From assembly GCA_027053075.1 (NCBI GenBank), contig JALUEE010000078.1:43573-107572 (forward strand): a stretch of DNA of 64,000 nt, given 5' to 3'. The notes below the pieces were generated by a model that did not search any database, was not told the origin of the DNA, and was given only the letters and a program-made list of their open reading frames with translations. The DNA comes from a candidate division WOR-3 bacterium. GTDB taxonomy: Bacteria > Hydrothermota > Hydrothermia > B15-G9 > WFZT01. This document shows positions 40,127 to 59,803 of the stretch, one piece after another (the first letter of the stretch is position 1; every line of letters starts with the position of its first letter). A program made the translations under genes and the position numbers.

Positions 40127-41086
40127 ATGGATATTGTTGTCAGTGTAAAAAATCTGGAAAAAGTATATAAGAGGCAGCGTCGAGAATCTGGTCTAAAGAA
40201 CGTAATAAAGGATTTTTTTAGAAGGCAATATACACAGATACAAGCGCTTAAAAAAGTAAGTTTTACTGTAAGAAAAGGAGAAATCATAGGTTATATCGGA
40301 CCCAACGGAGCAGGTAAAACTACTACCCTAAAAATACTATCGGGTATACTTTATCCATCTGGAGGGGATGTGGAGGTTCTTGGTTTTACTCCCTGGAAAC
40401 GTAAAAGGGAGTTTCTGAAAAAAATAACCCTTATAATGGGACAAAAAAATCAATTATGGTGGGATATTCCGGCAATGGATAGTTTTTTACTCTTCAAAGA
40501 GATATATGAGGTACCTGATCATATTTTCAAAAAGCAAATTAATACTTTATTGGATATGCTTGATGCTGGAAAACTTGTCAATTATCCTGTCAGACATCTT
40601 TCTATGGGAGAGAGGATGAAGATGGAGATTGTTGCCGCTTTAATTCATAACCCGGACATAATATTTCTTGACGAACCGACTATTGGACTGGACGTGATGT
40701 CTCAAACTTCTATAAGAGAGTTTTTATCCGCTTATAACAAGGAATTTCAGAAAACCATAATCCTGACAAGTTACTACATGAAGGATATTGAAGAATTATC
40801 CAATAGGGTGATCTTTATAATGAATGGAGAAATTATTTATGATGGATCTATAGATAAATTAATCTCCAGAACTCTTTCTCACGAATATGTTGAAGTAACG
40901 TTTGGTACAGGTAAAGGATTTGTGAAAAAATCTTATAAAGTTAAAAAAGAAGAAATGCCAGATTTTCTAAGGAAAATTTTAACAAGTAACAACGGTTCTA
41001 TAGTTGAGATTAGGCATAGAAAACCTGACCTTGAAGAAGTTGCTCGTATTATTATGGCCTCTAAGGGGATTAAGAAAGATGAGTAA
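40127..41086 (+). CDS. ABC transporter ATP-binding protein
   Basis: GPNGAGKTT, LSMGE, FLDEPT; switch His appears replaced (TSYY). Confidence 0.92.
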   Translation: MDIVVSVKNLEKVYKRQRRESGLKNVIKDFFRRQYTQIQALKKVSFTVRKGEIIGYIGPNGAGKTTTLKILSGILYPSGGDVEVLGFTPWKRKREFLKKITLIMGQKNQLWWDIPAMDSFLLFKEIYEVPDHIFKKQINTLLDMLDAGKLVNYPVRHLSMGERMKMEIVAALIHNPDIIFLDEPTIGLDVMSQTSIREFLSAYNKEFQKTIILTSYYMKDIEELSNRVIFIMNGEIIYDGSIDKLISRTLSHEYVEVTFGTGKGFVKKSYKVKKEEMPDFLRKILTSNNGSIVEIRHRKPDLEEVARIIMASKGIKKDE

Positions 41087-41861
41087 ATATGTGAGATTAA
41101 TTTACAATTCTATGGCGGAAACCCTAACTTATAGAGCAAATCTTGTTATCAGTTTTGCTGTTATAGCTATTCCTTTTATTATCGCTGTTATTTTCTGGAG
41201 GGGAGTATTCTTTGCCAATAATTCTGTAGCAGATTACTCGCTTAAAGACATAATCACTTATTATTTTATAGTATTGTTTGCGCAGGATTTTACCTACCCT
41301 GTGTTAAATTATGATATTGTTATGGATATTAAAAACGGGCGGTTAAATTTTTTACTGATAAAACCTGTTAATTATTTCTGGTATACATTTTTCTTAAGAC
41401 TCGGGAGTAATATAGTTTATTTGAGTGTTGTCACGGCTTTTTTGATAATATATGTACTCATTTTCGCTAAGTTTCTGATACTGAATCCAAATAAGATACC
41501 CGCATTTCTATTATCTTTTTTGCTTTCTTACATATTAGGTGCACTTATTAGTTTCTTTTTTAGTATTTTTACTCTGTTTTTAGAAAACTTTGCAGGGCTT
41601 GAAAGTTTTGTAAACTTTATTGTTCCAGTTTTTTCTGGAATTTTGTTACCAATTAGTATGCTCCCGGGTTTATTATATAAGATATCCTTATACTTGCCCT
41701 TGAGATTACTTGTTTTTTATCCAGTAGAGATATATCTCGGAAAGAAAGATCTGAATAAAGGTATAATATATTCGTACCTTTTTTGGATATTGCTTTTCGC
41801 TATAATCAATTTATTTGTCTGGAGGGAGGGTTTAAAAAAATATAGAGCAGTGGGTGGATAA
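41079..41861 (+). CDS. ABC-2 family permease (DUF990-like)
   Basis: TYRAN, IKNG.L..LLIKP, C-terminal Y.AVGG. Confidence 0.85.
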   Translation: MSKYVRLIYNSMAETLTYRANLVISFAVIAIPFIIAVIFWRGVFFANNSVADYSLKDIITYYFIVLFAQDFTYPVLNYDIVMDIKNGRLNFLLIKPVNYFWYTFFLRLGSNIVYLSVVTAFLIIYVLIFAKFLILNPNKIPAFLLSFLLSYILGALISFFFSIFTLFLENFAGLESFVNFIVPVFSGILLPISMLPGLLYKISLYLPLRLLVFYPVEIYLGKKDLNKGIIYSYLFWILLFAIINLFVWREGLKKYRAVGG

Positions 41862-41864
41862 CAG

Positions 41865-42653
41865 ATGAGGAAGTATCTAAAAATATTCAAATTACAACTG
41901 GTAAATCAAATTGTATCCTACAGTATTTTTAAGGGCGACGCTATTCTGCTTATAGTATCTGATACTTTTGGGCTGATTTTTTCGGTGATATTTTTCAAAG
42001 CACTTTACAACAACATAGATTCTATTGGTAGCTGGAACTATGAATCAACACTTTTATTGGTAGGTATTGCAAATTTTGCGGATTCTTTTTATAGGTTATT
42101 ATTTGAGAAAAATGTGCGAAGGATTTCTGCTTTTGTAAGAAAAGGTACATTGGATTACGCGCTAATTAAGCCTATTGATGTACAATTTTTTCTTAGTATA
42201 GGAAGATTCAAATTCCAGACTTTATCTTCCCTGCTTTTCTCGATTTTGGTTATCCTTCACGCTATGAAATTATTACAACTTACAATTAATGTTTTTAACG
42301 TAATTGTATTTATCATTCTTTTGATAACAGGTGTGTCTTTGCGTTATATATTCAGTTTATATTCTTCTATCATTTCTTTTTACACTACCAGAGTTTCTGC
42401 TTTCTATTCTTTACAAATGGAGATTTTCAAATACGCTGAATATCCCTTTGATGTGTTTAGAGGATTAATTGAAAGGATATTTTTCACGTTTATATTTCCA
42501 ATTGTAATAATTGCCAATGCCCCGGCTATAGTTATTATACAAAATAGAAACTATTGGGTGATTTTAAGCGTCTTTATCAGTGTAGTACACTTCTATTTAT
42601 CTCGAATTTTGCTTTTTGCTTCAATAAATAAATACCAGAGTGCAGGAGGTTGA
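41865..42653 (+). CDS. ABC-2 family permease (DUF990-like)
   Basis: VRKGTLD..LIKP, YP..VF, C-terminal YQSAGG. Confidence 0.85.
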   Translation: MRKYLKIFKLQLVNQIVSYSIFKGDAILLIVSDTFGLIFSVIFFKALYNNIDSIGSWNYESTLLLVGIANFADSFYRLLFEKNVRRISAFVRKGTLDYALIKPIDVQFFLSIGRFKFQTLSSLLFSILVILHAMKLLQLTINVFNVIVFIILLITGVSLRYIFSLYSSIISFYTTRVSAFYSLQMEIFKYAEYPFDVFRGLIERIFFTFIFPIVIIANAPAIVIIQNRNYWVILSVFISVVHFYLSRILLFASINKYQSAGG

Positions 42654-42654
42654 T

Positions 42655-44517
42655 ATGTTTGTGTTGTTGATCATTGCGCTAAGCTTTAACAATTTTCACC
42701 GTTTCTTCCCGAATAGTGGGGAAATGATGGAAAACCGGACATTTGCGACTGTGGAACTGGTTAATGACACACTCGTGATTAATGCAAAATGCCACTCTAA
42801 GTATGGAATTTACACGGAATCTCTTGACAGGGATGAAATAAAGCCCGGTGAAGATTTCTTCGGTATTGTAATCACACAGGACAGGAATACGGGTTATTTC
42901 TTCCTGATAAATGCAAATGGTATAAAAAGCGACGGAGTAATCGTCCATAAAAGCACAAAAAGAAAAGCCTGGGATTATGTCTGGAATGTGAGCTCAAAGA
43001 GGTTTGATGATTCTTTATGGGTTGCAAATGTCAGGATTCCTCTTGATCGACTAAACCTTGAATACAAAGACAGTCTCATCCTGTACGTCAACCTCGTCAG
43101 GAGCGCAAAGCTCGGAGGCGTAGGCAGGTATGAGTCAGGGACTTATGTGCCCATTGTGGGCTCAAACTTCTATGATCTCACTTTTACTCAGAGGGTTGCT
43201 CTCCCGGTTGAGAAGAGAAAAGCAGGGACAAAGTTATTTATTGAGCCCTATGTGGCGGTTTACCGTGACAGTGGAGGTGTTTTCTTTAAAGAAGGGGAGG
43301 ACATAACTTTAAAGAATCAGACTGGAGAGCTTGCGATAACAGTGAATCCGGACTACGCAACAGTGGAAAGTGATGTGGAACGATTTAATCTCGACAAATT
43401 ACAGATGCTCTACTATCCGGAAAAGCGTCCCTTTTTCATGCATGGTTTTGAGCTATGGAACCTGCCCTTTATGGTACTTTACACGAGGAGCCTGACGGAG
43501 ATAGATGCAGGGGTAAAGGCAAATGTTAAGAGAGAAAATATGAGCTTCAATGCATTCCTTATTGAGGAAGGGGACACACTGTCAGGCTATTTTAGAAGGA
43601 AACGTCTCACCGGTGGAGTCAGGGGATTATACTCAACCGAATACGGGGACTTTGGGCTCTTTTATCTAAGTAGCAGGGACAGTTTTGAAGCAAAAGGTCT
43701 TGATGCAATGTTTTACCTTCCCTTTCAGCTCAGAGTAAATATGCAATATACACTGGACCGTTCGTCAAAGAGTGATTTCTTTTTACACATTTACCGGTTT
43801 GTTGAATCCGGAGTGGATGTGGAAGCCGGGTTGGAGAGACTTGATAGTGTGAGAATAAATACAGCTTACATACCATATCCCTTATACACTCGCTCCGCAT
43901 GGCTTTATCTCACCTACAATTTTTCAAGGGATAGCAAAATCTTACCCAATGGCTACTTAAGTATAGGTGGGACACATGGAGAATACCTAAACGGAAAACT
44001 CTATGAAAATAGTGGTTCAATAGTGGCCTCAGCTGGAATTCTCAGTAATCTACGGGTGGTATATAACCTTATACCCTAGAGAAGGAACGCTGGCAATACG
44101 ATATATGATAACTTGTTGCATTACTTTGAGATAGACTACCAGCCCCTGACACATCACTACATTGAAATTGAGACACAGTTTGGTCGTTACTTTGGAGGGG
44201 TCCAAAAATACTACTCTGCAGAATATTCGTACAAAGGTGAAAAGCTCTTGCTCGCATCTGGATACGGCTACGACAGCGAGCCTTTTTACACGCAGAAGCG
44301 CATATATTTGAAGGCAAAATACAATCTTACCAATGACTTAAGGGCAAGACTCTTTGTGCAGCATTCTGAGATTTCAAAAAGGAATGAGGTAAACTTTTTG
44401 ACGGAATACCGCATAAAGCCTGGAACTTTCCTTTATTTTGTGATAAACAGGACCGAAATAAATGGCTCCCCGCAGGTTAATTTCATGGTTAAGTTTAAAA
44501 GTTATGTGGGGATATAG
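42655..44517 (+). pseudogene. CBM9/DUF5916-type outer-membrane protein interrupted by one in-frame TAG (44077-44079)
   Basis: NPDYATVESD...YPEKRPFF; ORFs 42640-44079 and 44113-44517 share a frame, open in between. Confidence 0.7.
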
Positions 44518-44852
44518 ATACAATAATAAATCCTCATTTCTAATACCATAATGTCTTTAAATTAACCGGGAATATTTCCATAATCAGCACATAACGTGGA
44601 ACATCAAATTCATCTCATTGAATTCCTCCCCCACGCACTCTTGTGCGTGGGGGAGGTTGGGAGGGGGTAACCTTGATATAAATTTAAAGAGGCCCCTTCC
44701 CTACCTTCCCCACAAGCAAAGCTTGTGGGGAAGGAGATTCTTAAAAAATTTAAAAGTGCATCATTTAATCGGTTTTAGTATAATAAAATGTGTGGTTCCA
44801 CATTCACCATGGTAAATTTGATTTAAGTCGATATTAATTCCCTGGGGGATTT

Positions 44853-46796
44853 ATGGTGCTGATACTTTTATTGGCAGGAATTTTGGTTAGAGTAAATGTT
44901 GTTGATTCTTCGTTGAGGCATATAAAAGATGCTGAGATAGTGATAAAATCCGATGGAGAGGTTAAGAGGGTGGGGGAGGGCGACTTCGTCGCCCTCCCCC
45001 ACCCTCTTAATATTTTCTACATCTCCGCTCCCGGCTGGCACTCCATTCAGGATACACTCTACCTGACCAAAGACACCACTCTAACCTTCATCCTTACCCC
45101 AATCGAATACAAAACTGAAGAAGTTGAAGTTATCTCTTCACCATTACCATCAGGAGATGTGAAAATTAAGAGAGAATCTATTATTGAAACACCATCTCCC
45201 ATAGCTCCTGATCCCTTAAGGCCCATATTGAATCTACCGTTTGTTGAGCCTGGAAATGAGCTCTTACCTTTTTCATTCTATGTAAAAGGTGCTGTACCAG
45301 GTGAAAACTCTGCCTTTATCGAAGGTTACCCCCTTGTTTTCCCTTTCCATTTTGGCTTTACAACCGCTGTTCCTGTCTATTCTTTAAAATCTTATGACTT
45401 TTACACGGTCTATATTCCACCTGAACTTTCCCTGAAGGTGTCTTCGGCCATCAATTTTCATTTAAGGAATGATAGGACAGATGAACTCTTTGTTGATCCA
45501 ACCTCATCTATCAATTTTGTCCATTCGAGAAAGGACTTTTTAGCTTCAATAAGATTCACATCCATGTCGCTTCCGGTCTATTTAATGACCAAAAATATTC
45601 TCTACTATTTTGGAGATGTTATCGGGAGATTTCGCAATTTCATTTCATATATTTCCTATGACTTTGCACGGGACAGTGTTACTGATATGATAGAGTGGGA
45701 TTTTCTAAATTTTATGTCAGGAATGAGGATTGGTGAGTGTAGGGTGTATTTTAGCAGCGGTATTTATCATTTGAAATATCTGGATACAGGTGAAAAGGAT
45801 GCTTCCAGCTCAGAAAGCTTTGGGATTGTGGGAAAAGCTCCATTTTCTCTTGGCTTCCATTTTAGATTTTTGAAAATTGATGCAAATTCGAAATACTTCC
45901 CGTGGATGAACGGCAGCTATAGGGTTTTTGAAGGCCAAATCTGGAGAGGAATGAAGTTTGGTGGCTTTCGTATTACACCTATGTTCAAGATAATAAAAAA
46001 TGGGAGGTGGAAGATTGACCTCATGCCTCAATTTGGATTTGGATACCTGTGGAGAAGATATTATTTGAGAATCACATCTGGTGCCAATTCACAGGTGGAA
46101 TCTTCACCTAATAGCGGATGGTTAGGTGTGGCCAATAAAATGACAAAAAATTATTATTTGCAGGCTGAATCCGGTGGAGAAAAAGTTACATTTGGTGGAT
46201 TTGTAAGATATTATCCCCATGAGTATTACATAGCCGAGCTTGCAAGGGTAGATACTGTTATCAGCAGTAGTGACACCCTATGGAACCTAATTCCATACGA
46301 TTCACTTTTCCATGTAAGGAAATTTGCCGCAGGTGCTTATGTCTCGTTTTCTTTCGGAAAGCAATTCTGGCGATTGAGTGGAGATGTGGGTATTTTGAAA
46401 GGATTTGAGAGCACGGGAAAAACAAAGTTTCCACTCCCATACACTCCGGAAATTTCAATTAAACTCATGCCATCTCTTAGATGGGGTAAGAACGTGATTG
46501 ATGTTCCCATTTACTTTAAGAGTGGAATTAAGATTCCTGAGTTTTATGGTGACACCGATATTGGACCTATAGTATATGAGAAGCCCAGGACTATTAATTC
46601 AAAGGTTTACCTCAGGGTAGATGTAAGCTGGGCACACAGGTTTCACTTCCTGGGCTCAGAGAGCAGGTTTGTTCTTGGAATATTTAATCTAATTGGTATT
46701 AAGCCCGACATTGGATTTGAACCGGGCGAGGATAAATTTGTAAGAATTCCCATCCCCTCAGCAGGTGTGTGGATAAAATTTACTAAGAATTATTGA
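44853..46796 (+). CDS. TonB-dependent receptor-like outer-membrane protein
   Basis: N-terminal Ig-like part, plug-like DPLR..LNLP.V..FYVKG...EN...IEG.P...PFHF, terminal RVD..GIFNL..PIPS.G. Confidence 0.7.
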   Translation: MVLILLLAGILVRVNVVDSSLRHIKDAEIVIKSDGEVKRVGEGDFVALPHPLNIFYISAPGWHSIQDTLYLTKDTTLTFILTPIEYKTEEVEVISSPLPSGDVKIKRESIIETPSPIAPDPLRPILNLPFVEPGNELLPFSFYVKGAVPGENSAFIEGYPLVFPFHFGFTTAVPVYSLKSYDFYTVYIPPELSLKVSSAINFHLRNDRTDELFVDPTSSINFVHSRKDFLASIRFTSMSLPVYLMTKNILYYFGDVIGRFRNFISYISYDFARDSVTDMIEWDFLNFMSGMRIGECRVYFSSGIYHLKYLDTGEKDASSSESFGIVGKAPFSLGFHFRFLKIDANSKYFPWMNGSYRVFEGQIWRGMKFGGFRITPMFKIIKNGRWKIDLMPQFGFGYLWRRYYLRITSGANSQVESSPNSGWLGVANKMTKNYYLQAESGGEKVTFGGFVRYYPHEYYIAELARVDTVISSSDTLWNLIPYDSLFHVRKFAAGAYVSFSFGKQFWRLSGDVGILKGFESTGKTKFPLPYTPEISIKLMPSLRWGKNVIDVPIYFKSGIKIPEFYGDTDIGPIVYEKPRTINSKVYLRVDVSWAHRFHFLGSESRFVLGIFNLIGIKPDIGFEPGEDKFVRIPIPSAGVWIKFTKNY

Positions 46797-46898
46797 TCAA
46801 TGTAATTATATCATGCATCGTGACTTTCCTGAAATTCCAGACTCAAATTTATCAAAAGGGGCACAAATTCGAAACGAGTTTATACATGTTCCACAGAA

Positions 46899-47063
46899 GT
46901 GTAAACAAGGTAGTTGACACAGCAAAACCCGCATGAATACTGGGAATATCCCACTAAATAGTACAAAAGTACTGTAAACAATTAGTTGACACACATAAGT
47001 TGTGATACTATCAACACTTACAACATTTAAAAGCAAACCAGTGTAAACTAATTAGTTTACACT
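46899..47063. promoter_or_regulatory. Three operator-like palindromes upstream of lanthipeptide precursor
   Basis: 46899-46920, 46972-46992 and perfect AGTGTAAACTAATTAGTTTACACT 47040-47063. Confidence 0.7.
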
Positions 47064-47135
47064 TTGCATTGAACCTCATAAATGCAAGAGACGAAAATCC
47101 TCTATATTACTATACTTTACGTTTCGTTATTTCTA

Positions 47136-47151
47136 CGGAAGAAAAATTGCT
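47136..47151 (+). promoter_or_regulatory. Possible sigma54 promoter
   Basis: CGGAAGAAAAATTGCT has GG-N10-GC spacing with TTGC; -24 match imperfect. Confidence 0.45.
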
Positions 47152-47204
47152 ATTAAATAATAATGGTAGCGCGCTATCGAAAAACTTAAAAAGGAGGTAA
47201 AGCT

Positions 47205-47342
47205 ATGTATAGAGTGCTATCACTGCAAAGAATGGGAACGAGAGTAATGAATGACGATAATGGCGGGTGTCACGGAAGCTGTATGAGTTATCTCTTCTGT
47301 TCAACTCTGAGTATAGGTTGTGGACGGGGACGTGGAAAGTAA
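47205..47342 (+). CDS. Class III lanthipeptide precursor A1 (45 aa; not in ORF track)
   Basis: MYRVLSLQRMGTRVMNDDNGGCHGSCMSYLFCSTLSIGCGRGRGK; AAGGAGGT RBS; LxLQ leader; two S-x-x-S-x(2-3)-C motifs. Confidence 0.92.
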   Translation: MYRVLSLQRMGTRVMNDDNGGCHGSCMSYLFCSTLSIGCGRGRGK

Positions 47343-47345
47343 AAA

Positions 47346-47382
47346 TATGGTGCCGAGCACCCTGCGGGTGCTCGGCACCATA
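47346..47382 (+). terminator. Stem-loop between precursor and lanKC
   Basis: 17-bp perfect stem, TGC loop; no U-tract on + strand, so probably an mRNA stabiliser or attenuator. Confidence 0.6.
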
Positions 47383-47402
47383 AAAACCTGACTAAAGCTA
47401 CC

Positions 47403-50003
47403 ATGTACGAACAGATTGACCTTTTTCAGTTTATTATTCTGAATAGTGATTTTTATATTCCTATTGACTATATTGAGTGCGGAGAAAATTACAAACAGAT
47501 TGTTAAATCTCATCTAAAACTGGGATGGCATTTAGAAGATCAGGGTATCTGGACCTTCGTATTTAACGAAGCGAATGAGTTCCCCGAGCAGGGCTGGAAA
47601 ATTCATATATCAGCTATTCCCCAAAATGCCGGAGAAATCCTGCAAAAGACAGTTCCAATCCTTGTTTCAAATAAGGTAAACTTCAAATTTGCCTGTAATG
47701 AATTTGTGCTAACTCTCTTGAACTCCAAAAATTGGAGTCGAGGAGGGAGTGGAAAGTTCATTACTATCTATCCCCCTGAGAGATTATTCAAGCCACTTAT
47801 CCAGGAACTTTACAACGAATTACACAGTTATATGGGCCCCTATATTCTGTCAGATATGAGATATAGAGACGCTAAGGTGATTTACTATCGTTATGGTGGA
47901 TTTCAGCCGATGGAAAAGTTGACGGTCGAGGGATACAAAATTTCGCTTATCAAAACTCCCGAAGGAGAATTCATACAGGACAATAGACCTCCATTCTATA
48001 ATCCTCCACCATGGGTAAAAGACCCTTTTGGTCAAGAGCCCAGGTATGAGGAGAATATTCTCCTGAATAATAGGTATAAAGTCCTATTCCCCATCTCGTT
48101 TTCCAATTCAGGAGGTGTATATAAAGCAGTTGATACTTTTAATAATCAGGAGGTTATCCTTAAAGAGGCAAGGCCGTTTGTTAACCTTCAGGAGAATATA
48201 TCCGCAAAGGACCTTCTTGAAAAAGAATTTGAAATCCTCAAAAGAATCGAGGACCTTGGTATAGCTCCAAAACCGATTTCGTATTTTAAAGAATGGGAAC
48301 ATTTCTTCCTTGTTGAGGAATTTATTAAGGGGATGGATTTGAGAGAATATGTTGTCGTTAATTCTCCCATATTGAAAACCAATCCAGAGTTTGAAGACTA
48401 CAAAAATTATTTCCGGTCGTATCGGAAGATATTTCTTAATCTCATTGACTCTATCGAGAAATTGCACAGTAGGGGAATTATTTTCAGGGATCTATCACAT
48501 AATAACATCATTATTCAGGATGACCTTAGTGTTAAGTTGATAGATTTTGAGAGTGCCTATCTGATGGGAAGTGACAGGTGGATTCAAATTTTCACTCCAG
48601 GGTTTGCCTCTCCCAACCAGATATTGAATGAAATGCCAGAATTTTCTGACGATATCTATTCAATTGGTGAAAACATGATGGCCGCGATATTCCCCATAAA
48701 TCAATTTTTCTCACTTGCTCCCGATGCACGCGATAGATATTTGAAGGACATTATTGTTGATATGAATTTCCCAACAAAATTAAAGAAAATAATCAGTATC
48801 AGCACCAGTGGAGATGACCGCGTTGATTTGAGGTTTCTAAAATCCAGTTTGAGAAAACTTCGATTCCCTAAGCCTTTTAAAAGACAAACAAGCGTACTTA
48901 CAGATGCAGAGATAAACAGGATAATAAAGGGTATAAGGAAGTACCTTTTCAATTCCAACAAGTGGGAAAGGGAATTGGGAGCTCCGTTTCCTCTTTACGC
49001 TGAAGCATACATGACAAATATTTACAGTGTTGCTTATGGTATTAGCGGGATTTTGCTGTCTATGCTGAAATGTGGCTTTTCACCACACAAAAAGCAACTT
49101 GAGTGGTTTGTAAATCAGGATTTTGATGAGAGAGACATTCCACCTGGCCTTTATATTGGGCTTAGTGGGATTGCATGGACACTTCTGGAATTAGGGCACG
49201 AAGAGCTTGGAATTAAAGTATTCGATAAAGCCTTATCCCATCCCCTTGTATCGGATTCAGTTGATATGTTTTACGGTATGGCAGGAATTGGAATCACCAG
49301 CCTTCAGTTTTATCACAAATTCAAGGAGGACATTTATCTTTCCCACGCGGTGCAACTTTCAGAGATGATTTCCAATAAGCTTGAGGAGGCTGACAATTCA
49401 CTATATTTCAAGGGAACAGATGGTGATGTTCATTACGGATATGCACATGGTGCTTCAGGTGTCGCACTTTTCATGCTTTACTTATATTTAGCAACAAGAG
49501 ATGAAAGATTTTTAAACCTATCTCAAAGGCTCATGGATTTTGACCTCTCTCATGCTGTTGATTACAAAGATGCAATTTCATGGCATCCATCTAAGGAGCA
49601 CAGTTCCACTGTAATGCCATACGTAAAGTATGGAACCTCTGGAATTATTTCTGTGTTGCTCAGAATTAATCAGGTAACTCCTTTCAAGCAAGAATATATA
49701 CACAAAGGTTTACAAGATATAACAAGAAAGTATGCCATATTCCCTGGACAACTTAATGGATTATCCGGAATGGGAGAGACTATAATCGACGCGATGCCTT
49801 TTAAGGGAAACCTTGATAACCATCTCCAAAGGCTAATAAAAGGTGTGTCTTTGTTTATGATAAAAAGACCCGAAGGCATCACTTTCCCTTCAGACGGACT
49901 ATTTCGCATAAGCTGTGATTACGGTACAGGGTGCAGCGGAATTATGTCTTTTCTTTGCAGGACTATTAATAGGGATAAACGGTTGCTCTTTGATCTCGAA
50001 TGA
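47403..50003 (+). CDS. lanKC: Class III lanthipeptide synthetase LanKC
   Basis: Lyase (QGWKIHIS, SGKFITIYP, YYRYGGF), kinase (SNSGGVY, LKEARP, RDLSHNN, IDFE), cyclase-like domain without obvious Zn-ligand motifs, RISCDYGTG. Confidence 0.95.
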   Translation: MYEQIDLFQFIILNSDFYIPIDYIECGENYKQIVKSHLKLGWHLEDQGIWTFVFNEANEFPEQGWKIHISAIPQNAGEILQKTVPILVSNKVNFKFACNEFVLTLLNSKNWSRGGSGKFITIYPPERLFKPLIQELYNELHSYMGPYILSDMRYRDAKVIYYRYGGFQPMEKLTVEGYKISLIKTPEGEFIQDNRPPFYNPPPWVKDPFGQEPRYEENILLNNRYKVLFPISFSNSGGVYKAVDTFNNQEVILKEARPFVNLQENISAKDLLEKEFEILKRIEDLGIAPKPISYFKEWEHFFLVEEFIKGMDLREYVVVNSPILKTNPEFEDYKNYFRSYRKIFLNLIDSIEKLHSRGIIFRDLSHNNIIIQDDLSVKLIDFESAYLMGSDRWIQIFTPGFASPNQILNEMPEFSDDIYSIGENMMAAIFPINQFFSLAPDARDRYLKDIIVDMNFPTKLKKIISISTSGDDRVDLRFLKSSLRKLRFPKPFKRQTSVLTDAEINRIIKGIRKYLFNSNKWERELGAPFPLYAEAYMTNIYSVAYGISGILLSMLKCGFSPHKKQLEWFVNQDFDERDIPPGLYIGLSGIAWTLLELGHEELGIKVFDKALSHPLVSDSVDMFYGMAGIGITSLQFYHKFKEDIYLSHAVQLSEMISNKLEEADNSLYFKGTDGDVHYGYAHGASGVALFMLYLYLATRDERFLNLSQRLMDFDLSHAVDYKDAISWHPSKEHSSTVMPYVKYGTSGIISVLLRINQVTPFKQEYIHKGLQDITRKYAIFPGQLNGLSGMGETIIDAMPFKGNLDNHLQRLIKGVSLFMIKRPEGITFPSDGLFRISCDYGTGCSGIMSFLCRTINRDKRLLFDLE

Positions 50004-51508
50004 AAAGATTGTATAGCATAATAAAACCTTTTGAGAGAGGATTTTGGGGACTTGTCCTGTATTCTCTAATTTTAAACATCTTTACTCTTTCAAATCCTCT
50101 TGTCTTAAAGTTCATATTTGACGAGGGTATCAAAGGGAAAAACCTTAGACTGTTTATTTTACTGGTTTCTATATTCATTTTTGTCTCGATATTCTGGAGA
50201 GTTTTAAATTACCATTACTCTTTGCTTCTGGAAAAATTCAAAATACGGGTTACAAAATACTGGCTTAAGAATACGATAAATGCTTTTCTAAAGAGGCCCT
50301 ACAAAGAAATAATCACAAAAGATTCCGGATATTATCTCTCGAGAATTTATGAAGAACCTGAATCACTGAGTAATGAGCTTGTTTCCGGTGCTATTGATGC
50401 TATAAATCTGGGGATTGGCTTGATTTTATCCCTGGCACTCCTGTTGTATTTTTCTGTCTATGCTACCCTCATCCTTTTTCTGATTATTCCCGTGACATAT
50501 TTTTTGTCCTCTTATTTTTCGCAAAAAATTAAAGAATATACTGACAAGGAGCGAGAGAGTGAAGCTAAATTAAGAGAAACGATAACTGATGTAATACGGT
50601 CTGTTAAGTTTATAAAATCTTTCCAGTTTCATGATTTTATAGTCGGCAAGTTTATAGACAGATTGTCTAAATTCTTATCCATCTACTTAAAAAATTTCGA
50701 ATATGCTACGGGTTTTGATACGCTAAGCTCTATATTTTTGTCTCTTTCTGAACTATCGGTGATTATAGTTAGTGGCTATTTAATGATAATCGATAAAATG
50801 ACGTTTGGTAGCTTCATGGGATTTATGAACACTTTCTGGGGGTTTATTGGTGCAGTCCAGAGATTTATAGGAATAATCCCGGAAATCGCTGGGGCAATGG
50901 CTATTTATGATAGGCTTGAAAACTTTATAAACGTGCAAAATGGCCGAGCGGTGCAGTTTGGTGAAAAAATTATTTTGAAAAATGTAAGTTTCTCTTACGA
51001 TGGGAAATCTCGGGTGTTAGACAATTTCTCACTGATTATTAATCCTGGTGAGAAAATCCTCATACTTGGAGAGAATGGCAGCGGAAAAACCACCCTTGCC
51101 AATATAATCTCTGGACTAATAATACCTGAGGGGCAGGTCACCCTTCTCAAGAAAGTAAGCTTGATGCCAGATAATCTCCCCTCATTAAGACTTCGCGAGT
51201 ACGCTGTTCTGGACGAAAGAAATAAGTTTTTTGAGTTAATAAAGCTTTTTCAGTTAGAGGATTACCTTGATAAGACACCAGGGGAGCTCTCTATGGGCCA
51301 GAGGAAGAAGTTCACAATCACACTTACCCTTATAAGAGATGCTGATATCTATATTTTTGATGAGCCACTTGTAAATCTCGATAGTTTGAGTAAAAATTTA
51401 GCAATGGATTTGATTTTTGAAAATACTTATCGCAAAACACTTATCATAATAAGCCACAATTCTATTAAGAATAGATTTGATAGGGTTATAAAACTTGAGA
51501 GGAGGTAA
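50000..51508 (+). CDS. ABC exporter (fused TMD-NBD), probable lanthipeptide transporter
   Basis: TM domain plus GENGSGKTT, LSMGQ, FDEP; ATGA overlap with lanKC; no C39 domain. Confidence 0.9.
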   Translation: MKRLYSIIKPFERGFWGLVLYSLILNIFTLSNPLVLKFIFDEGIKGKNLRLFILLVSIFIFVSIFWRVLNYHYSLLLEKFKIRVTKYWLKNTINAFLKRPYKEIITKDSGYYLSRIYEEPESLSNELVSGAIDAINLGIGLILSLALLLYFSVYATLILFLIIPVTYFLSSYFSQKIKEYTDKERESEAKLRETITDVIRSVKFIKSFQFHDFIVGKFIDRLSKFLSIYLKNFEYATGFDTLSSIFLSLSELSVIIVSGYLMIIDKMTFGSFMGFMNTFWGFIGAVQRFIGIIPEIAGAMAIYDRLENFINVQNGRAVQFGEKIILKNVSFSYDGKSRVLDNFSLIINPGEKILILGENGSGKTTLANIISGLIIPEGQVTLLKKVSLMPDNLPSLRLREYAVLDERNKFFELIKLFQLEDYLDKTPGELSMGQRKKFTITLTLIRDADIYIFDEPLVNLDSLSKNLAMDLIFENTYRKTLIIISHNSIKNRFDRVIKLERR

Positions 51509-51512
51509 AATT

Positions 51513-51692
51513 ATGTGGCAGGTCCTCAGTCTCCAGATTCTGGGGATGCAAAGCAAGGATAAAACAAAAGGGAAAAGTACCATGAGCTACTCTTTCTGCT
51601 CGCTCCTCAGTCTTGGATGTGAAACCAGCAAGAAAGGCAAAAAGAAACGCAGGATTAATTTAAAAAGTTCACTTAGTATAAAATGCGGATAG
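51513..51692 (+). CDS. Class III lanthipeptide precursor A2 (59 aa)
   Basis: MWQVLSLQILGMQSKDKTKGKSTMSYSFCSLLSLGCETSKKGKKKRRINLKSSLSIKCG; GGAGGT RBS; three S-x-x-S-x(2-3)-C motifs. Confidence 0.9.
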   Translation: MWQVLSLQILGMQSKDKTKGKSTMSYSFCSLLSLGCETSKKGKKKRRINLKSSLSIKCG

Positions 51693-51702
51693 GGGGTGAA
51701 AA

Positions 51703-53961
51703 ATGAAGCTAATTCTTCTATATCTCCTTATAAACTATGGAGCTGTTAAAGGTAAGGTGCTCGAAAAGGGCACATCAAGGCCCGTTGAGTATGCAGTTGT
51801 CGTTGTCTTCGATAAAAGTGGTAAGCAGGCAGGTGGGACTTATGCGGATTCCACAGGTGAATTTTTGGTTGAGAGGTTAAAACCCGGGAAATACTATGCC
51901 ACAGTGGATTTTATAGGCTACCAGAAGGCCCGAACTGACACGTTTACCATTAAGGATGGAGATGTGAAAGACCTCGGGGTTATTTATCTTTCACCCAGCT
52001 ATATTAAAACTTCCCCGGTTAAGGCAACGGCAAAAGCCCCAAGGGTTAGAAGAGAGGTTGACAGGACAATTGTCACCCCTTCACAGGATGTGATTTCATC
52101 AGGTGGGAATGCGAGTGATGTGTTACGAAATGTTCCTGGTGTCTCCGTTAGTATCACAGGTGAGGTCCTTATTAAAAACAGCAAAAATTACACAGTCCTT
52201 ATCAACAATAAGCCCACATTACTCGAACCTTCTCAGGTGTTGAAAGAAATTCCCGCATCCCAGATTGAAAGGATTGAGATAATAACCAATCCTTCTGCCG
52301 AGTATGACCCTGAGAGTAATGCTATCGTCAATATTGTGCTGAAAAAGTCCACATACAAGGTGGAGAACAGCTTTTCACTGAGATTCGGCACATTTTCTAA
52401 TTATGGTGTGTCTTTCACTTTAGGTGCTGTTAAAGGTAAAAACAGCTTTTATGGCATGGGAAATTACAATAAATATTCTCAGGCACTTCAGTATGAAATG
52501 GAAATGAAAAACCCATCTGACACAATTTCCCTTGATAAAACCAACTTCTATTCTCATGACCTGCCCAAAAACATTAGACTCGGGGCAAATTTGAACATCG
52601 GAAAACATGCCACCTTAACATTCGACGGTGAGGCCGGGAAATACATTCTGGATTACAGCGGTGACTTTCTCTACAGATCAGACTCCGGTAGCTACAGAAA
52701 TCCCATTGTCGCGAAATGGACCTCAAATTTCTTTTCAGGTTCCATAGATTTCTCCAGGGATTTTGAATCGGGTAGTATAGATGCCTCGCTTTATGCGGGG
52801 AAGTTAGATACAGATAAATCTCACGAGGCACCGAAGATTGTTGATGGGGATACAGTGGGTGGAATAAGAATGAAAGGAGACGGCAGCCTCAATCAACTAC
52901 GTTTTGACTTTTCAGCAGACAAAACCATTGGAAAATTCAAATTATCCACAGGATACAGGTATAGCATGAAAAAATTTGAATCCACAACATCAACGGAAAT
53001 TATCGGTGATTCGACATACGAAAATCCTCTAAACAGCAGAAGGGTTGTCAATGCCGGATATGTTAAAATAAAGAGTAGTTACAGGAAGTTAAATTATGCT
53101 GTCGGTCTGAGATTTGAGGGAACAGACAGGAAAATCGGGAATTTCACCATAAAACGGTCCGATATTTTCCCGTCATTCTATGTTTCCACCCGTTTGAGCC
53201 AGTTCTCCAAGCTGTCCTTTAGCTATTCGAGGAGGATTCGAAGGCCTTCCGCTTATGATCTTAATCCCGTTGACGTATGGGAGACTTCCAATGAGGTGCA
53301 CAAAGGAAATCCATCGCTGAAGCCGCAGTTTAACGATTCCTATGAGCTATCTTTTGAAACACCTCTGGGAGAGAAAATTTATCTCTCGGCTTCAGGATAT
53401 TATCTTTATTCGAAAGATTACTTTAACAAAGTGGAGGAGGTTGGGGATTCCGGGATCATAGTTAAGAAAGAGGTTAATTTCCCGTATAGAAAAGAGATTG
53501 GTGGTAATTTTGACCTTGAATGGAAACTCTCAAGGTTTATGAGATTCACACTCTCACCTGAGATTTATCGTTACAGGTTCAAAAAAGACACCGGGATTGA
53601 AGATGGAATGTTTTACATGGTCCGTGCTATGTTCTCAGGCCTTGTGATTCCCATTGGATTTATACAGGCCGGTGTGCAATATATCGGTCCTTACACAGAG
53701 ACATTTGGTAAGATGGCCCCTGTCTTTGGTGCGCAATTTGGGTATATGATTCAGATAAAGAATATCGCTGTGACACTGGCATTTATGGATGTCTTTCACA
53801 CCTATAAATCATCATGGACGAACGAATCCGATGGAAACTACATCCACAAGGAGATGTCCATGAGATACCCTTCCATTTCCATCTCAATAAGGTACATCAA
53901 CCGTAAACTCCAGATAGGAAAGGGAGAAAGAATCAACTCAGAGGATATTAAGAGTATGTGA
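51703..53961 (+). CDS. TonB-dependent receptor / outer-membrane beta-barrel
   Basis: Carboxypeptidase-regulatory-like N-terminus, plug IERIEIITNPSAEYD, YSRRIRRP, GNPSLKP. Confidence 0.88.
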   Translation: MKLILLYLLINYGAVKGKVLEKGTSRPVEYAVVVVFDKSGKQAGGTYADSTGEFLVERLKPGKYYATVDFIGYQKARTDTFTIKDGDVKDLGVIYLSPSYIKTSPVKATAKAPRVRREVDRTIVTPSQDVISSGGNASDVLRNVPGVSVSITGEVLIKNSKNYTVLINNKPTLLEPSQVLKEIPASQIERIEIITNPSAEYDPESNAIVNIVLKKSTYKVENSFSLRFGTFSNYGVSFTLGAVKGKNSFYGMGNYNKYSQALQYEMEMKNPSDTISLDKTNFYSHDLPKNIRLGANLNIGKHATLTFDGEAGKYILDYSGDFLYRSDSGSYRNPIVAKWTSNFFSGSIDFSRDFESGSIDASLYAGKLDTDKSHEAPKIVDGDTVGGIRMKGDGSLNQLRFDFSADKTIGKFKLSTGYRYSMKKFESTTSTEIIGDSTYENPLNSRRVVNAGYVKIKSSYRKLNYAVGLRFEGTDRKIGNFTIKRSDIFPSFYVSTRLSQFSKLSFSYSRRIRRPSAYDLNPVDVWETSNEVHKGNPSLKPQFNDSYELSFETPLGEKIYLSASGYYLYSKDYFNKVEEVGDSGIIVKKEVNFPYRKEIGGNFDLEWKLSRFMRFTLSPEIYRYRFKKDTGIEDGMFYMVRAMFSGLVIPIGFIQAGVQYIGPYTETFGKMAPVFGAQFGYMIQIKNIAVTLAFMDVFHTYKSSWTNESDGNYIHKEMSMRYPSISISIRYINRKLQIGKGERINSEDIKSM

Positions 53962-55712: not shown

Positions 55713-57299
55713 ATGCCATTCATCAGAGAAATCACTCATAAAAGAAAATCCGGCAAAGAGGTAACATATATCCAAATCGTCCACTCTTACAGAGTCGGCA
55801 AAAAAGTTAAACAAAAAATCATCGGTACCCTCGGCAGAAAAGACCAACTCCTGAAATCCGGCTCCCTCGAAAGATTGGCCTATAAACTCCTGGAGATAGC
55901 TGGTAAGCTTGAGGAGTTTCAGAACGAGAGGAAGGGGATGCCAAATCTTTTCCTCAAGGATGCGAGGGAGATGGGAAGGGCATATCTTTTCAAGTATCTC
56001 TGGAAGAAGGCAGGGTTACATAAATTTTTCAGGAGAGTAGCGGAGAAGGAGGGATTGAGTTTTGATCTTTCGGAGGCGATATACGAGATGGTGTTGAACA
56101 GGATAACAGAGCCGACGAGCAAGAGGAGACTGTTTATGGAGTGGAGGGAGGAGCATGATCTGGAGGATAAGGGGTTGGAGCTACATCATTACTACAGGGC
56201 ATTGGATTATCTTGTGAGAGTGAAGATGACACTTGAGGATTATTTGTACATGAGGGGAAGGGATTTATTTTCAGGGCCACCGAAGGTGGCATTTTTTGAT
56301 ACGACGTCGACATATTTTGAGGGTGAGGGGCCGGAGGGATTGGCGGAATATGGATACAGTAAAGATAAGAGGCCGGACAGGAAGCAGGTGGTGATAGGGG
56401 TGGTATTGGGGGAAGGGGGATTGCCGATATATCATAATGTATGGGAGGGTTCGCAGATGGATTTGGTGAGTTTTCGGGGTGTGTTGAGGGAATTGAGGGA
56501 AAGGTGGGGATTAGAGGAGGTGATATGGGTAGCGGACAGGGGATGCGTATCACCGGGGTTGCTGGAAGTATTGGATAAGGAGGGGATAAAGTATGTAGTG
56601 GGGGTAAAGATGAGGAAGGAGAGGGAGGTAAGGGACGAGGTATTAAGTAGAGGTGGGCGTTATAGAGAGATGGATGGAGGGTTGAAGGTGAAGGAAGTGA
56701 GGAATGGAGGGCACAGGTATGTGGTATGTTATGATCCGGTGACGGCGGAGAGAGACAGGAGAGTAAGGGAGGAGATAATAGAGTCGCTGGAGGATGGGTT
56801 AAAAGGAAAGGGGATGGGGGTGATACAGAAGGGATATAGAAGATATTTGAAGAAGGGTGGAGGAAGATATGAGATAGACAGGGAGAAGGTGGAGAAGGAG
56901 TCGAGATACGATGGGAAGTGGGTATTGAGGACGAATGTGGATTTAGAGACGGAGGAGGTAGTGAGGGTATACAAGGATTTATGGAAGGTGGAGAGGGCAT
57001 TCAGGGACATGAAGGATGTGTTAAAGATAAGGCCGATATATCATTGGAAGGAAGAGAGGGTGAGGGGGCATATAATGGTGTGTTTTTTAGCGTTATATTT
57101 AATGCAGTACCTGGAGTTCATGATGGGTGAAGAGAAGGGTGAGGTGGGGAAGTTGATGAAGGCGATGAGGAGGTTGAAGGTAGGGGAAGTGGAGCTGAAT
57201 GGTAGGATGTACAGGGTAAGGACGGAGGTGGATAATGAGGTAGAGGGGATGCTGGGGCGAATAGGGTTGAAGTTACCGCCATTGATACGAGCCATGTAA
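55713..57299 (+). CDS. IS1634-family DDE transposase
   Basis: FFDTTSTYFEG, GYSKDKRPD, VADRG, Y..LW.VERAFR..K, RPIYHW. Confidence 0.93.
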   Translation: MPFIREITHKRKSGKEVTYIQIVHSYRVGKKVKQKIIGTLGRKDQLLKSGSLERLAYKLLEIAGKLEEFQNERKGMPNLFLKDAREMGRAYLFKYLWKKAGLHKFFRRVAEKEGLSFDLSEAIYEMVLNRITEPTSKRRLFMEWREEHDLEDKGLELHHYYRALDYLVRVKMTLEDYLYMRGRDLFSGPPKVAFFDTTSTYFEGEGPEGLAEYGYSKDKRPDRKQVVIGVVLGEGGLPIYHNVWEGSQMDLVSFRGVLRELRERWGLEEVIWVADRGCVSPGLLEVLDKEGIKYVVGVKMRKEREVRDEVLSRGGRYREMDGGLKVKEVRNGGHRYVVCYDPVTAERDRRVREEIIESLEDGLKGKGMGVIQKGYRRYLKKGGGRYEIDREKVEKESRYDGKWVLRTNVDLETEEVVRVYKDLWKVERAFRDMKDVLKIRPIYHWKEERVRGHIMVCFLALYLMQYLEFMMGEEKGEVGKLMKAMRRLKVGEVELNGRMYRVRTEVDNEVEGMLGRIGLKLPPLIRAM

Positions 57300-57799: not shown

Positions 57800-59803
57800 A
57801 TGTGGATGCTGGTGATGCTGTCGCTTGTAATCCCACGATTGGACGGGGAAATAAAACTGGATGGAAAACTAAATGACCCCGTGTGGGTAAAGGCTTACCA
57901 CGTAAAAGAATTCAGAGAGCTCTCCCCGGTTTACAACAAAATTCCAGATTACTCTACAGAGGCTTATGTATTTACAACCTCAAAGGCCATCTACGTGGGT
58001 TTTAGATGCTCAGGTCCCCCACCAATTGTGGAAAATAAACCACGTGACATGGTGGCTGCTGATTATGTCACCTTCTATATCGCTCCATTTGGGTCACCTT
58101 CTACGGTATTTGCTTTCTCTGCTGATGCAGGTGGAAATATCGAAGACTTTACACAGAAAAATGGAATAATTGATATATCTTGGGATGCAAACTGGCAGGC
58201 TGCCTCTTACGTGGGAGATTTTTTTTATACTGTGGAGATGCGTATTCCTTTTAAATCTCTCACCTATAACAGAAGGACCCCATGGGGAATAAATTTCTCC
58301 AGGAATGTCAGCAAAAATAGGGCAATTTATTACTACAAGTTACCCCGTAAAGGTGATTTACTCCCTCAAATGCAGTATGTAACAGTGAAAGCTCCCATTA
58401 ACATAACTGGCCAGCTCATTCCCCAATTTGTATGGCGTAAAGATACAACCCTGAATTTCTTTGGAGAGAAAGAAGTCAAAACATATAAAAATATAGCGGG
58501 AGACTTCAGAGTTAGTGTGTCCGGGAATTCTTTTCACCTCACTGTAAATCCAGATTTTGCAGATGTCGAAGCAGACCCATTTTATGTGAATATATCTAAA
58601 TACCCAAGGTTTCTACCAGAGAAAAGACCATTTTTTGTTTACGATATGGATATTTTTGAGATGCCTTTCCTGATGGGAATGCACGTTGTGAAACTTGTTT
58701 ATACAAGGGCAATTGGCTCCACCATGATGGGGGAAATTCCCATAGACTGGGGTGCCAAGGCCGTATTGAGACAGAAAATTTTAAAAACCGGTGCCCTCGC
58801 TGTTAAAACAGATTCAGGTGAAACATTTTTATATTTCAGGCCCCTTTTTAACCTTTCAAAGTCACTTCAGGTGGGAGGTCTTATAGGAAATTATAGCCAC
58901 AGTGAAACCCAGAATCGCTTATTTTCCTTTGATTCCAAATTTAGGTGGCATAACTTCTCTGCTGTTTTGATAGGTGGCCGGTCAATCTACAAAGAGGAAG
59001 ATACCGATGAAGGAAACTTCTTAGATATGGGAGTTAGCTGGAACAATAAAGATTACGATATTACATTGGTTTTTGAGAGGATAGATTCACTTTTTGATGT
59101 CAGCAAGATTGGATTTGTTCCTGGAAGCGGATATCGGTTTAACATTAGCTTTAATAGAAGTTTATACCTCAAGAAAATTCCGTACCTCGTGACAGGTGTT
59201 AGTTTCACACGGGAAAGGGATTTAAACGAAAAACCATCGGCTGAAATATCCCATCAGCTTACCATGTATTTGAAGAATGGTAACTTCATCTCGTCTTCTA
59301 TATGGGAAGGTAACAGATATAGCTTTGACCCTTTCAGGAGGAAACTCGTTCATTTCAGAAATTGGGGAGCGTATGCAAACTTCATGCTCAATCTGCCTCC
59401 ACACTCTGTAAGAGTTTATGTTTCACGTGAGAGAACCTACAATTACCTGACGGGAAAGATAGGGCTCTACGACTATGGAAAGATCAGTTTTAACATGCAT
59501 GTATCCAAATCCATATCTTTATCGAACTCCTTATCGTTCTCGCAGGGGGCCGGCTTAAAAAGAACGATTTCAACTTTAATTACCGGGGATGTTAACCTGC
59601 GAAAAAGATTATCAGTGAGAATAGGGTATGAGAATGTATTTTCGGAGTCAGAACTTTATAGACCTTTTTACAGATACTGGGTGTTTGTGAAGTACCAGCT
59701 CGGCATTGGTGGAATATATGTGGCAATGAGTAATGAAAGGGACCAGAGTGGCGTATTAAACTCTGTTTTAGCCATCAAATTCAAATATTTCGTGAGCTTA
59801 TAA
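57800..59803 (+). CDS. CBM9-like + DUF5916-type outer-membrane protein
   Basis: IKLDGKLNDPVW, VEMRIPF, NPDFADVEAD...PEKRPFF. Confidence 0.8.
   Translation: MWMLVMLSLVIPRLDGEIKLDGKLNDPVWVKAYHVKEFRELSPVYNKIPDYSTEAYVFTTSKAIYVGFRCSGPPPIVENKPRDMVAADYVTFYIAPFGSPSTVFAFSADAGGNIEDFTQKNGIIDISWDANWQAASYVGDFFYTVEMRIPFKSLTYNRRTPWGINFSRNVSKNRAIYYYKLPRKGDLLPQMQYVTVKAPINITGQLIPQFVWRKDTTLNFFGEKEVKTYKNIAGDFRVSVSGNSFHLTVNPDFADVEADPFYVNISKYPRFLPEKRPFFVYDMDIFEMPFLMGMHVVKLVYTRAIGSTMMGEIPIDWGAKAVLRQKILKTGALAVKTDSGETFLYFRPLFNLSKSLQVGGLIGNYSHSETQNRLFSFDSKFRWHNFSAVLIGGRSIYKEEDTDEGNFLDMGVSWNNKDYDITLVFERIDSLFDVSKIGFVPGSGYRFNISFNRSLYLKKIPYLVTGVSFTRERDLNEKPSAEISHQLTMYLKNGNFISSSIWEGNRYSFDPFRRKLVHFRNWGAYANFMLNLPPHSVRVYVSRERTYNYLTGKIGLYDYGKISFNMHVSKSISLSNSLSFSQGAGLKRTISTLITGDVNLRKRLSVRIGYENVFSESELYRPFYRYWVFVKYQLGIGGIYVAMSNERDQSGVLNSVLAIKFKYFVSL

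Follow-up and report, generated by a model that had tools for sequence, protein, structure and literature searches.

A conserved class III lanthipeptide precursor family of uncultured WOR-3 bacteria with two adjacent ring motifs and a distant third

A 64,000-nucleotide stretch of DNA from an uncultured WOR-3 bacterium (here called the window) contains a short open reading frame, lanA2, whose product A2 carries one leader and three ring motifs, the last separated from the other two by a polybasic spacer. Such an arrangement raises the question of whether A2 gives one three-ring peptide or several products, and whether the third motif is real at all. The 59-residue reading frame (51513..51692; forward strand, as are all the genes and precursor parts given coordinates in the next three paragraphs) is exactly the sequence quoted in the initial annotation, and the reading frames bear out that it has its VLSLQ leader in common with A1, the product of lanA1 (47205..47342).

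A Shine-Dalgarno sequence, AGGAGG (51500..51505), lies seven bases 5' of the A2 start codon, within the last codons of an ABC exporter gene that stops at 51506-51508, and is kept in genomes G004 and G005. A2 itself lies 4 bases 3' of the exporter gene and 10 bases 5' of a gene for a TonB-dependent-type barrel, which starts at 51703. VLxLQ is a class III leader motif (PMC8169954, accessible text), and this, with the invariance of LSLQ, places the predicted leader at residues 1-21 (51513..51575, VLSLQ at 51522-51536). Ring motifs 1 and 2 are directly adjacent (51576..51620; Ser22/Ser25/Cys29 and Ser30/Ser33/Cys36, delimited by motif conservation). Family comparison divides what follows into a spacer body of variable length and sequence (residues 37-47, 51621..51653, with the polybasic run at 51630-51653) and a conserved spacer end, INLK (51654..51665), a hydrophobic-x-hydrophobic-K/R sequence that is a candidate cut or docking site. 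Ring motif 3 (51666..51686; Ser52/Ser55/Cys58) has the form SS[LA]S-x2-3-C. The double ring, the tether formed by the spacer and ring 3 have GRAVY values of +0.98, -2.2 and +0.51, and the net charge of the core is +8. The calculated monoisotopic mass of the unmodified core (residues 22-59) is 4168.20 Da and that of residues 52-59 is 793.40 Da; three labionins would imply 6 or more dehydrations (about 4060.1 Da) and leave no Cys free. Genome-wide, among 19,424 ORFs of 30-120 aa, three SxxS-x2-5-C motifs are found in 3, of which only A2 also has LxLQ, and LxLQ is combined with at least two motifs only in A1 and A2.

The enzyme encoded between the two precursor genes (47403..50003) is a synthetase of 866 aa with lyase, kinase and cyclase domains (Pfam RamC_N, Pkinase and LANC_like). 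It scores 691.2 bits against the LanKC model NF038151 (cut-off 575) and 485 bits against the LanL model, below that model's cut-off of 650; its closest solved relative in the PDB is ThurKC (E 4e-82), and the best matches of its cyclase are LanKC structures. The cyclase has no Cys at PYVKYG or GQLNG, which we take to be the LanC zinc-ligand positions, and it lacks the zinc triad whose absence separates LanKC from LanL. A LanKC-type synthetase, an LxLQ leader and Sx2Sx2-5C core motifs, the marks of class III, are all present. A2 falls below the curated class III precursor cut-off (NF038159, 21.1 against 30 bits, over residues 3-30 only) and matches no further curated precursor model (NF038154, or the SapB/AmfS model NF033212); its homologue P0005 is above the NF038154 cut-off (23.2 against 22). 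By all features assessed except the curated precursor cut-off, A2 is a predicted class III lanthipeptide precursor, a class in which lanthionine (Lan) and labionin (Lab) are not distinguishable from sequence (PMC13380574, accessible text).

The exporter (50000..51508) comprises membrane and ATPase parts and has no peptidase domain in Pfam and model searches. Pfam finds neither a protease nor a decarboxylase among the 18 ORFs between 38949 and 63707, and protease genes are also absent from the orthologous neighbourhoods scanned. Class III leader proteases are usually unclustered endopeptidases or aminopeptidases (PMC10885120), and members of the M1, M16 and S9 families, encoded away from the cluster, take off leaders of this class (PMC10885120, PMC10604976; both as far as their accessible text goes); elsewhere this genome encodes an M1 peptidase (contig C4), a tandem M16 pair (contig C47) and an S9 peptidase (contig C38).

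Between lanA1 and lanKC is a perfect 17-bp hairpin (47346..47382), likely an mRNA stabiliser or attenuator, and upstream of lanA1 are three operator-like palindromes, TGTAAAC...GTT[G/T]ACA, spaced 72 and 70 bases (46898..47063). A module of about 75 bases with this palindrome occurs at three places (window 46898-47063, window 39984 and G000:C4:41504), where it precedes the lanthipeptide operon, an ABC-2/DUF5916 operon (40127-46796) and an operon on contig C4. The operons behind the shared module are likely to form one regulon, and the ABC-2/DUF5916 operon may possibly hold self-protection genes. No sigma-54 site was found upstream of A1, and a sigma-70 scan gave chance-level counts (24 against 21.6). 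A DUF5916-like gene at 42640-44517 is divided between two ORFs in overlapping frames (479 and 134 aa, against 667 aa in a paralogue at 57800-59803), possibly by a frameshift, and a DDE transposase gene with strong GC skew (55713-57299) is inserted 3' of a PorV-like gene. Apparently broken LanKC genes occur in G063 (two ORFs, L049 5464-8146) and G037 (a C-terminal remnant, L264 1-702), and from these genes it looks as if cluster decay is frequent in the phylum.

Is the third motif maintained? The family assembled here comprises 19 sequences, of which 15 proteins, A2 included, came from a homologue search and four are locus-derived variants; seven represent one lineage, and the G004 copy is left out of the count. 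Each of the 19 has LSLQ (invariant in 15/15 aligned), followed by two adjoining motifs, then a spacer and finally SS[LA]S-x2-3-C. Codon replacements across three strain pairs number 1/21 in ring 3 (with 8 synonymous changes), a rate as low as that of rings 1 and 2 (2/46). The spacer body shows 11/30, the four residues that end the spacer 3/12 and the leader tail 12/37 (p=0.009 for ring 3 versus spacer; p=0.8 for spacer versus leader tail). These counts indicate that ring 3 is under selection and that the polybasic run is not. When the residues C-terminal of ring 2 are shuffled, the motif arises in 3-9% of cases for each sequence, which for any single tail leaves some room for accident, and the real motif is present in 8/8 divergent lineages; the combined probability of 3e-11 is too extreme, because the lineages are kin and not independent. 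The initial annotation had proposed an alignment of homologues and had named an unmodified, unconserved third motif, a chance C-terminal extension, as the outcome that would overturn its reading; the conservation found here is the opposite outcome. With both Ser and the Cys kept in 19/19 sequences from four families under purifying selection, a chance, unmodified extension is improbable in the extreme. A lipolanthine, the C-terminal Cys of which is decarboxylated by a LanD enzyme (PMC7540663, accessible text), was also considered and rejected: the ring-3 Cys is followed by 1-7 further residues in 19/19 sequences, and the 18 ORFs include no decarboxylase.

The A2 profile matches 7/272 genomes of the phylum, in four families of one class, and LanKC is matched in 15/272. 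Searching 1.84 billion representatives with a profile brought up 8 proteins and revealed no wider family, the ESM Atlas gave no usable match, and no longer or fused form of A2 scored, which is weak evidence. LanKC relatives were gathered in two alignment-based locus searches with the best 80 loci kept from each. In the 160 nearest LanKC loci listed there are 129 distinct precursors picked by pattern, 13 of them with three strict motifs: 7 belong to the A2 family and 6 have three adjacent motifs. Among these 129, gaps of more than 8 residues occur only in the A2 family, and gaps of 5-8 in others too. In three metagenomic class III loci (L059, L061 and L095), the clusters contain several precursor copies whose three motifs follow one another directly. 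When 35 LanKCs were aligned, leaving out one locus without a recoverable LanKC, the A2-linked enzymes (9/9) fell in one clade with a FastTree support of 99. At the least, these comparisons suggest, A2 belongs to a class III lanthipeptide family that is deeply conserved among uncultured WOR-3 bacteria and of which we found no description in the open-access literature searched.

The shorter precursor behaves differently. A1 has two motifs and is paralogous to the N-terminal portion of A2, and homologue and locus comparison show it to be dispensable: it is present in 6/11 distinct loci with context and missing in 5/11. A2 is the sole precursor in three metagenome loci (L051, L052 and L054), and G005 has no A1 match though A2 is present and the genome is 96% complete; because the three metagenome loci are closely related to one another, the losses of A1 represent few independent events. 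The G004 assembly (89% complete) lacks the DNA corresponding to window 46787-51465 (A1, lanKC and the exporter) and retains the final few exporter bases, A2 (9 synonymous codons and 1 replaced codon) and the barrel gene. The junction in this genome, which is of the same genus (L221, G004:C71, 5987-5997), is a candidate recent deletion or a candidate non-producing 'cheater' with the receptor kept. A1 is also less conserved than A2, and a weak match to it in G056 is noise inside a recG-like ORF. In the window's A1, two additional Cys residues (CHGSC) lie at the border between leader and core; other A1 homologues lack this pair, which might form a disulfide or an additional ring.

Two dissimilar precursors with one leader motif and one enzyme, side by side in 6/11 loci, are what an obligate two-peptide lantibiotic active only as A1 plus A2 would look like, and this kind of pairing has been proposed in class III (PMC8169954, accessible text). 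A two-component system would have both precursors always present, and the absence of A1 from 5/11 loci, which include those with A2 alone and the G005 and G004 genomes, counts against obligate synergy of the kind that the initial annotation wished to assay. Together with its lower conservation, this leaves an obligate partnership very improbable, and we rejected it; A2 is, on comparison of the loci, the constant precursor and A1 an optional short paralogue without ring 3.

What is retained between rings 2 and 3 is charge and a short end sequence. Spacer length ranges from 6 (P0014) through 15 in A2 to 34 residues (P0009) in the 19 sequences, and net charge is positive in every one (+2 to +7); K+R make up 37% of the spacers, 24% of the leader tails and 12% genome-wide. 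K or R at position -1 of ring 3 and L, W or I at -2 are found in 19/19. The KKGKKKRR run drew attention in the initial annotation and is present as written, but it is lineage-specific, only the net charge and the hydrophobic-K/R end being kept. A dibasic pair occurs in 11/19 spacers (3 of 8 divergent lineages) and a run of at least four K/R in 2/19. This makes both the proposed cutting at polybasic residues and specific nucleic-acid binding through KKGKKKRR unlikely, so that the run is rejected as a conserved cut site or nucleic-acid-binding motif and any cut site would be the conserved hydrophobic-x-hydrophobic-K/R. The resemblance noted there between the basic stretches before motifs 1 and 3 holds in A2 but not family-wide: a K immediately precedes ring 1 in 9/19 sequences, against K/R before ring 3 in 19/19, and nothing ahead of ring 1 corresponds to the hydrophobic residues that come before ring 3. 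Neither LxLQ nor a repeated flanking sequence was found in the 19 spacers.

The gene 3' of A2 (51703..53961, forward strand) encodes a TonB-dependent-type barrel with a plug and an N-terminal beta-sandwich (Pfam PF14905, PF00593, PF07715 and PF13620), the parts also seen in a structural model (pLDDT 86.9) that Foldseek matches to the TonB-dependent transporters PfeA/PhuR (E 1e-21). A tree built from 33 homologues across the class (the best 30 of 61 matches listed and 3 cluster copies) places it in a RiPP-linked group of 6 members, delimited after the first tree was viewed, with support of 100/100 and a multi-module precursor directly 5' in all 6. Two of these precursors are Cys-rich, one in a radical-SAM cluster, and have linkers ending in VNVK or THIK. 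No homologue of and no family match to the radical-SAM-cluster precursor was found, so that the likeness of linkers rests on two sequences. Unannotated Cys-rich RiPP precursors that match no family lie upstream of sister barrels (L263 5567-5740 and 7678-7797; L262 9256-9429), and L263 has radical-SAM/SPASM genes with a short and a long, two-module precursor, in parallel with A1 and A2. The position of A2 after the transporter and beside the TonB gene, as initially annotated, is correct for this window and not general: A2 directly precedes a barrel in 5/11 loci and a lanKC or DUF5916 gene in 6/11 (a DUF5916 protein in G049), and fixed adjacency was rejected. DUF5916-related proteins of 650-660 aa are found in LanKC clusters that lack the barrel (L023 5279-7258, L046 5017-6981 and L048 4556-6508), those of L023 and L046 being 33% identical. 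The loci suggest that the DUF5916-related protein and the TonB-type barrel may fill an interchangeable outer-membrane slot. PF14905/TonB-linked barrels beside Bacteroidetes graspetide clusters are predicted to mediate export (PMC8939145, accessible text); they are of the same Pfam family and likewise stand beside a RiPP cluster, with a different RiPP chemistry and phylum, and export there is only predicted. Noursin uptake is TonB-independent in the available text of PMC13688881 and thus offers no precedent for the barrel's role.

Given a conserved third ring motif, the remaining question is whether the tether stays in the product. We think it probable that A2 yields one tricyclic peptide, a bicycle, a cationic tether and a ring, as a long-linker variant of stackepeptin. 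This agrees with the option of one long cationic tri-motif peptide in the initial annotation and is favoured because the tether's positive charge is kept in 19/19 sequences alongside the third motif, a 6-residue version exists, the flanking site is not repeated and stackepeptin sets a precedent. The 6-residue spacer of P0014 is close to the 5-8 residue gaps of other LanKC precursors and to the gaps of 1 and 3 residues in stackepeptin (PMC8341899, accessible text). Several features point the other way. Replacements are as frequent in the spacer body as in the leader tail (11/30 against 12/37), and as many as 34 residues are accommodated, both of which would be expected of a linker that is thrown away; the fixed hydrophobic-K/R just ahead of ring 3 resembles a processing site; A1 encodes the double ring by itself; and proteases would readily attack an unstructured tether rich in Lys. 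They would fit a two-core precursor, in which all three motifs are ringed and a protease cuts after hydrophobic-x-hydrophobic-K/R and trims the tether, giving an A1-like double ring and a single-ring peptide. One-motif precursors in other WOR-3 LanKC clusters, the restriction of gaps longer than 8 residues to the A2 family and the presence in this genome of proteases of the usually unclustered kind would also fit. Multi-core precursors have conserved modules joined by a relaxed linker, which A2 has, and a repeated flanking recognition or cut sequence, which it does not, ring 1 being preceded by K in 9/19 sequences and a dibasic pair being present in 11/19. The cluster contains no protease gene, constant positive charge is easier to explain if the tether remains in the product, and 6 residues leave little room between two rings. 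Multi-core precursors are moreover 'not yet reported for lanthipeptides' according to the available part of a 2026 paper (PMC13343206), which lowers the prior for cleavage, and we regard the two-core reading as doubtful. Equally tentative is its fullest form, in which A2 would be the first lanthipeptide precursor of the multi-core type, with one leader and three motifs, cleaved after hydrophobic-x-hydrophobic-Lys into a bicyclic and a monocyclic lanthipeptide in a 1:1 ratio that pass through a dedicated TonB-type barrel whose sister clade serves radical-SAM precursors of the same module-linker-module design.

Ring 3 and the tether might instead act as a follower that primes LanKC or addresses the peptide to the barrel and is then discarded, leaving the A1-like double ring as the sole active product. 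The C-terminal ring of stackepeptin is needed for modification of the remainder (PMC8341899, accessible text), a multi-module precursor is directly 5' of the barrel in 6/6 members of the clade, where the linkers of two others end in hydrophobic-x-hydrophobic-K, and G004 retains A2 and the barrel after loss of A1, lanKC and the exporter. Against such a handle, A1 has none and is encoded beside the same enzyme, A2 adjoins the barrel in 5/11 loci only with a DUF5916 protein in its place in G049, the radical-SAM likeness amounts to four residues in two related sequences, and G004 may be a recent deletion. We hold this reading to be improbable.

For the single three-ring product, a route can be proposed in which each step is conditional. 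In class III synthesis the leader guides dehydration, and Lan or Lab rings are closed in the C-to-N direction (PMC8341899, accessible text). LanKC would bind the VLSLQ leader, phosphorylate the Ser residues and eliminate, and would then cyclise from C to N, ring 3 first, so that the three SxxS-x-C motifs likely become labionin or lanthionine rings. The peptidase-less exporter would carry modified A2 over the inner membrane, an unclustered protease (the M1 peptidase, the tandem M16 pair and the S9 peptidase are candidates) would take off the leader, and the co-encoded TonB-type barrel would pass the product through the outer membrane or take it up there. In the resulting hydrophobic-cationic-hydrophobic layout the tether would contribute charge and reach and no specific sequence. 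Least certain is the last step, in which the product would act as a cationic amphiphile on bacterial membranes, for competition or signalling; most of the class III peptides known so far have weak antibacterial activity (PMC8341899, accessible text), which makes this step a guess.

The family provides a 2+1 ring layout in which natural tethers range from 6 to 34 residues in length. A LanKC predicted to reach motifs far from the leader and to tolerate long inserts would be a useful engineering scaffold, and with its short- and long-spacer variants as natural controls the family offers a clean test of the multi-core lanthipeptide question. Were the tether cut, there would be two products, which is unreported for lanthipeptides in the available part of PMC13343206. 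This cluster also associates a class III peptide with one particular clade of outer-membrane barrels, through which diderms may export RiPPs or sense them.

Among known systems, cyanobactins and microviridin AMdnA (PMC5934393) resemble A2 in that one leader guides several linker-separated modules; in the accessible text their cores are released separately, and for A2 neither a repeated flanking site nor a clustered protease was found. Class III precursors of Rheinheimera and Burkholderiaceae (L194, L196-L199, L204 and L205) have (D/E)WSTxS-x2-C repeats with an acidic gap of 6-8 residues and are, from their sequences, another candidate for multi-core lanthipeptides. Labyrinthopeptin, SapB and AmfS share with A2 an LxLQ leader, tandem Sx2Sx2-5C motifs, LanKC, a peptidase-less ABC exporter and, as predicted for A2, an unclustered protease; they have two motifs, a pattern that A1 fits and to which A2 adds a distant third. 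The andalusicin system of Bacillus thuringiensis, with its synthetase ThurKC, shares the VLxLQ leader and an unclustered M16B pair like the tandem M16 genes of contig C47, whereas its single C-terminal ring, Thr-rich core and methyltransferase are all absent here. The closest parallel is stackepeptin. Its precursor StaA has one leader and three Sx2Sx2-5C motifs, is processed by a LanKC and was isolated as one three-ring peptide (PMC8341899, accessible text), so that three motifs in one class III precursor were already known, a precedent that the initial annotation did not consider. Both precursors have two close motifs and a third, an arrangement ascribed in stackepeptin to motif multiplication (PMC8341899, accessible text). 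The gaps in StaA are 1 and 3 residues (Cys10-Ser12 and Cys19-Ser23; PMC8341899, accessible text), and those in A2 are 0 and 15, the latter a cationic tether ranging from 6 to 34 in the family. A2 thus has the three motifs of the stackepeptin family but not its close spacing or SapB-type kinship (no NF033212 match), and unlike stackepeptin it comes from a diderm, a WOR-3 bacterium with an outer-membrane barrel gene. By this analogy, A2 would work like stackepeptin and belong to another family.
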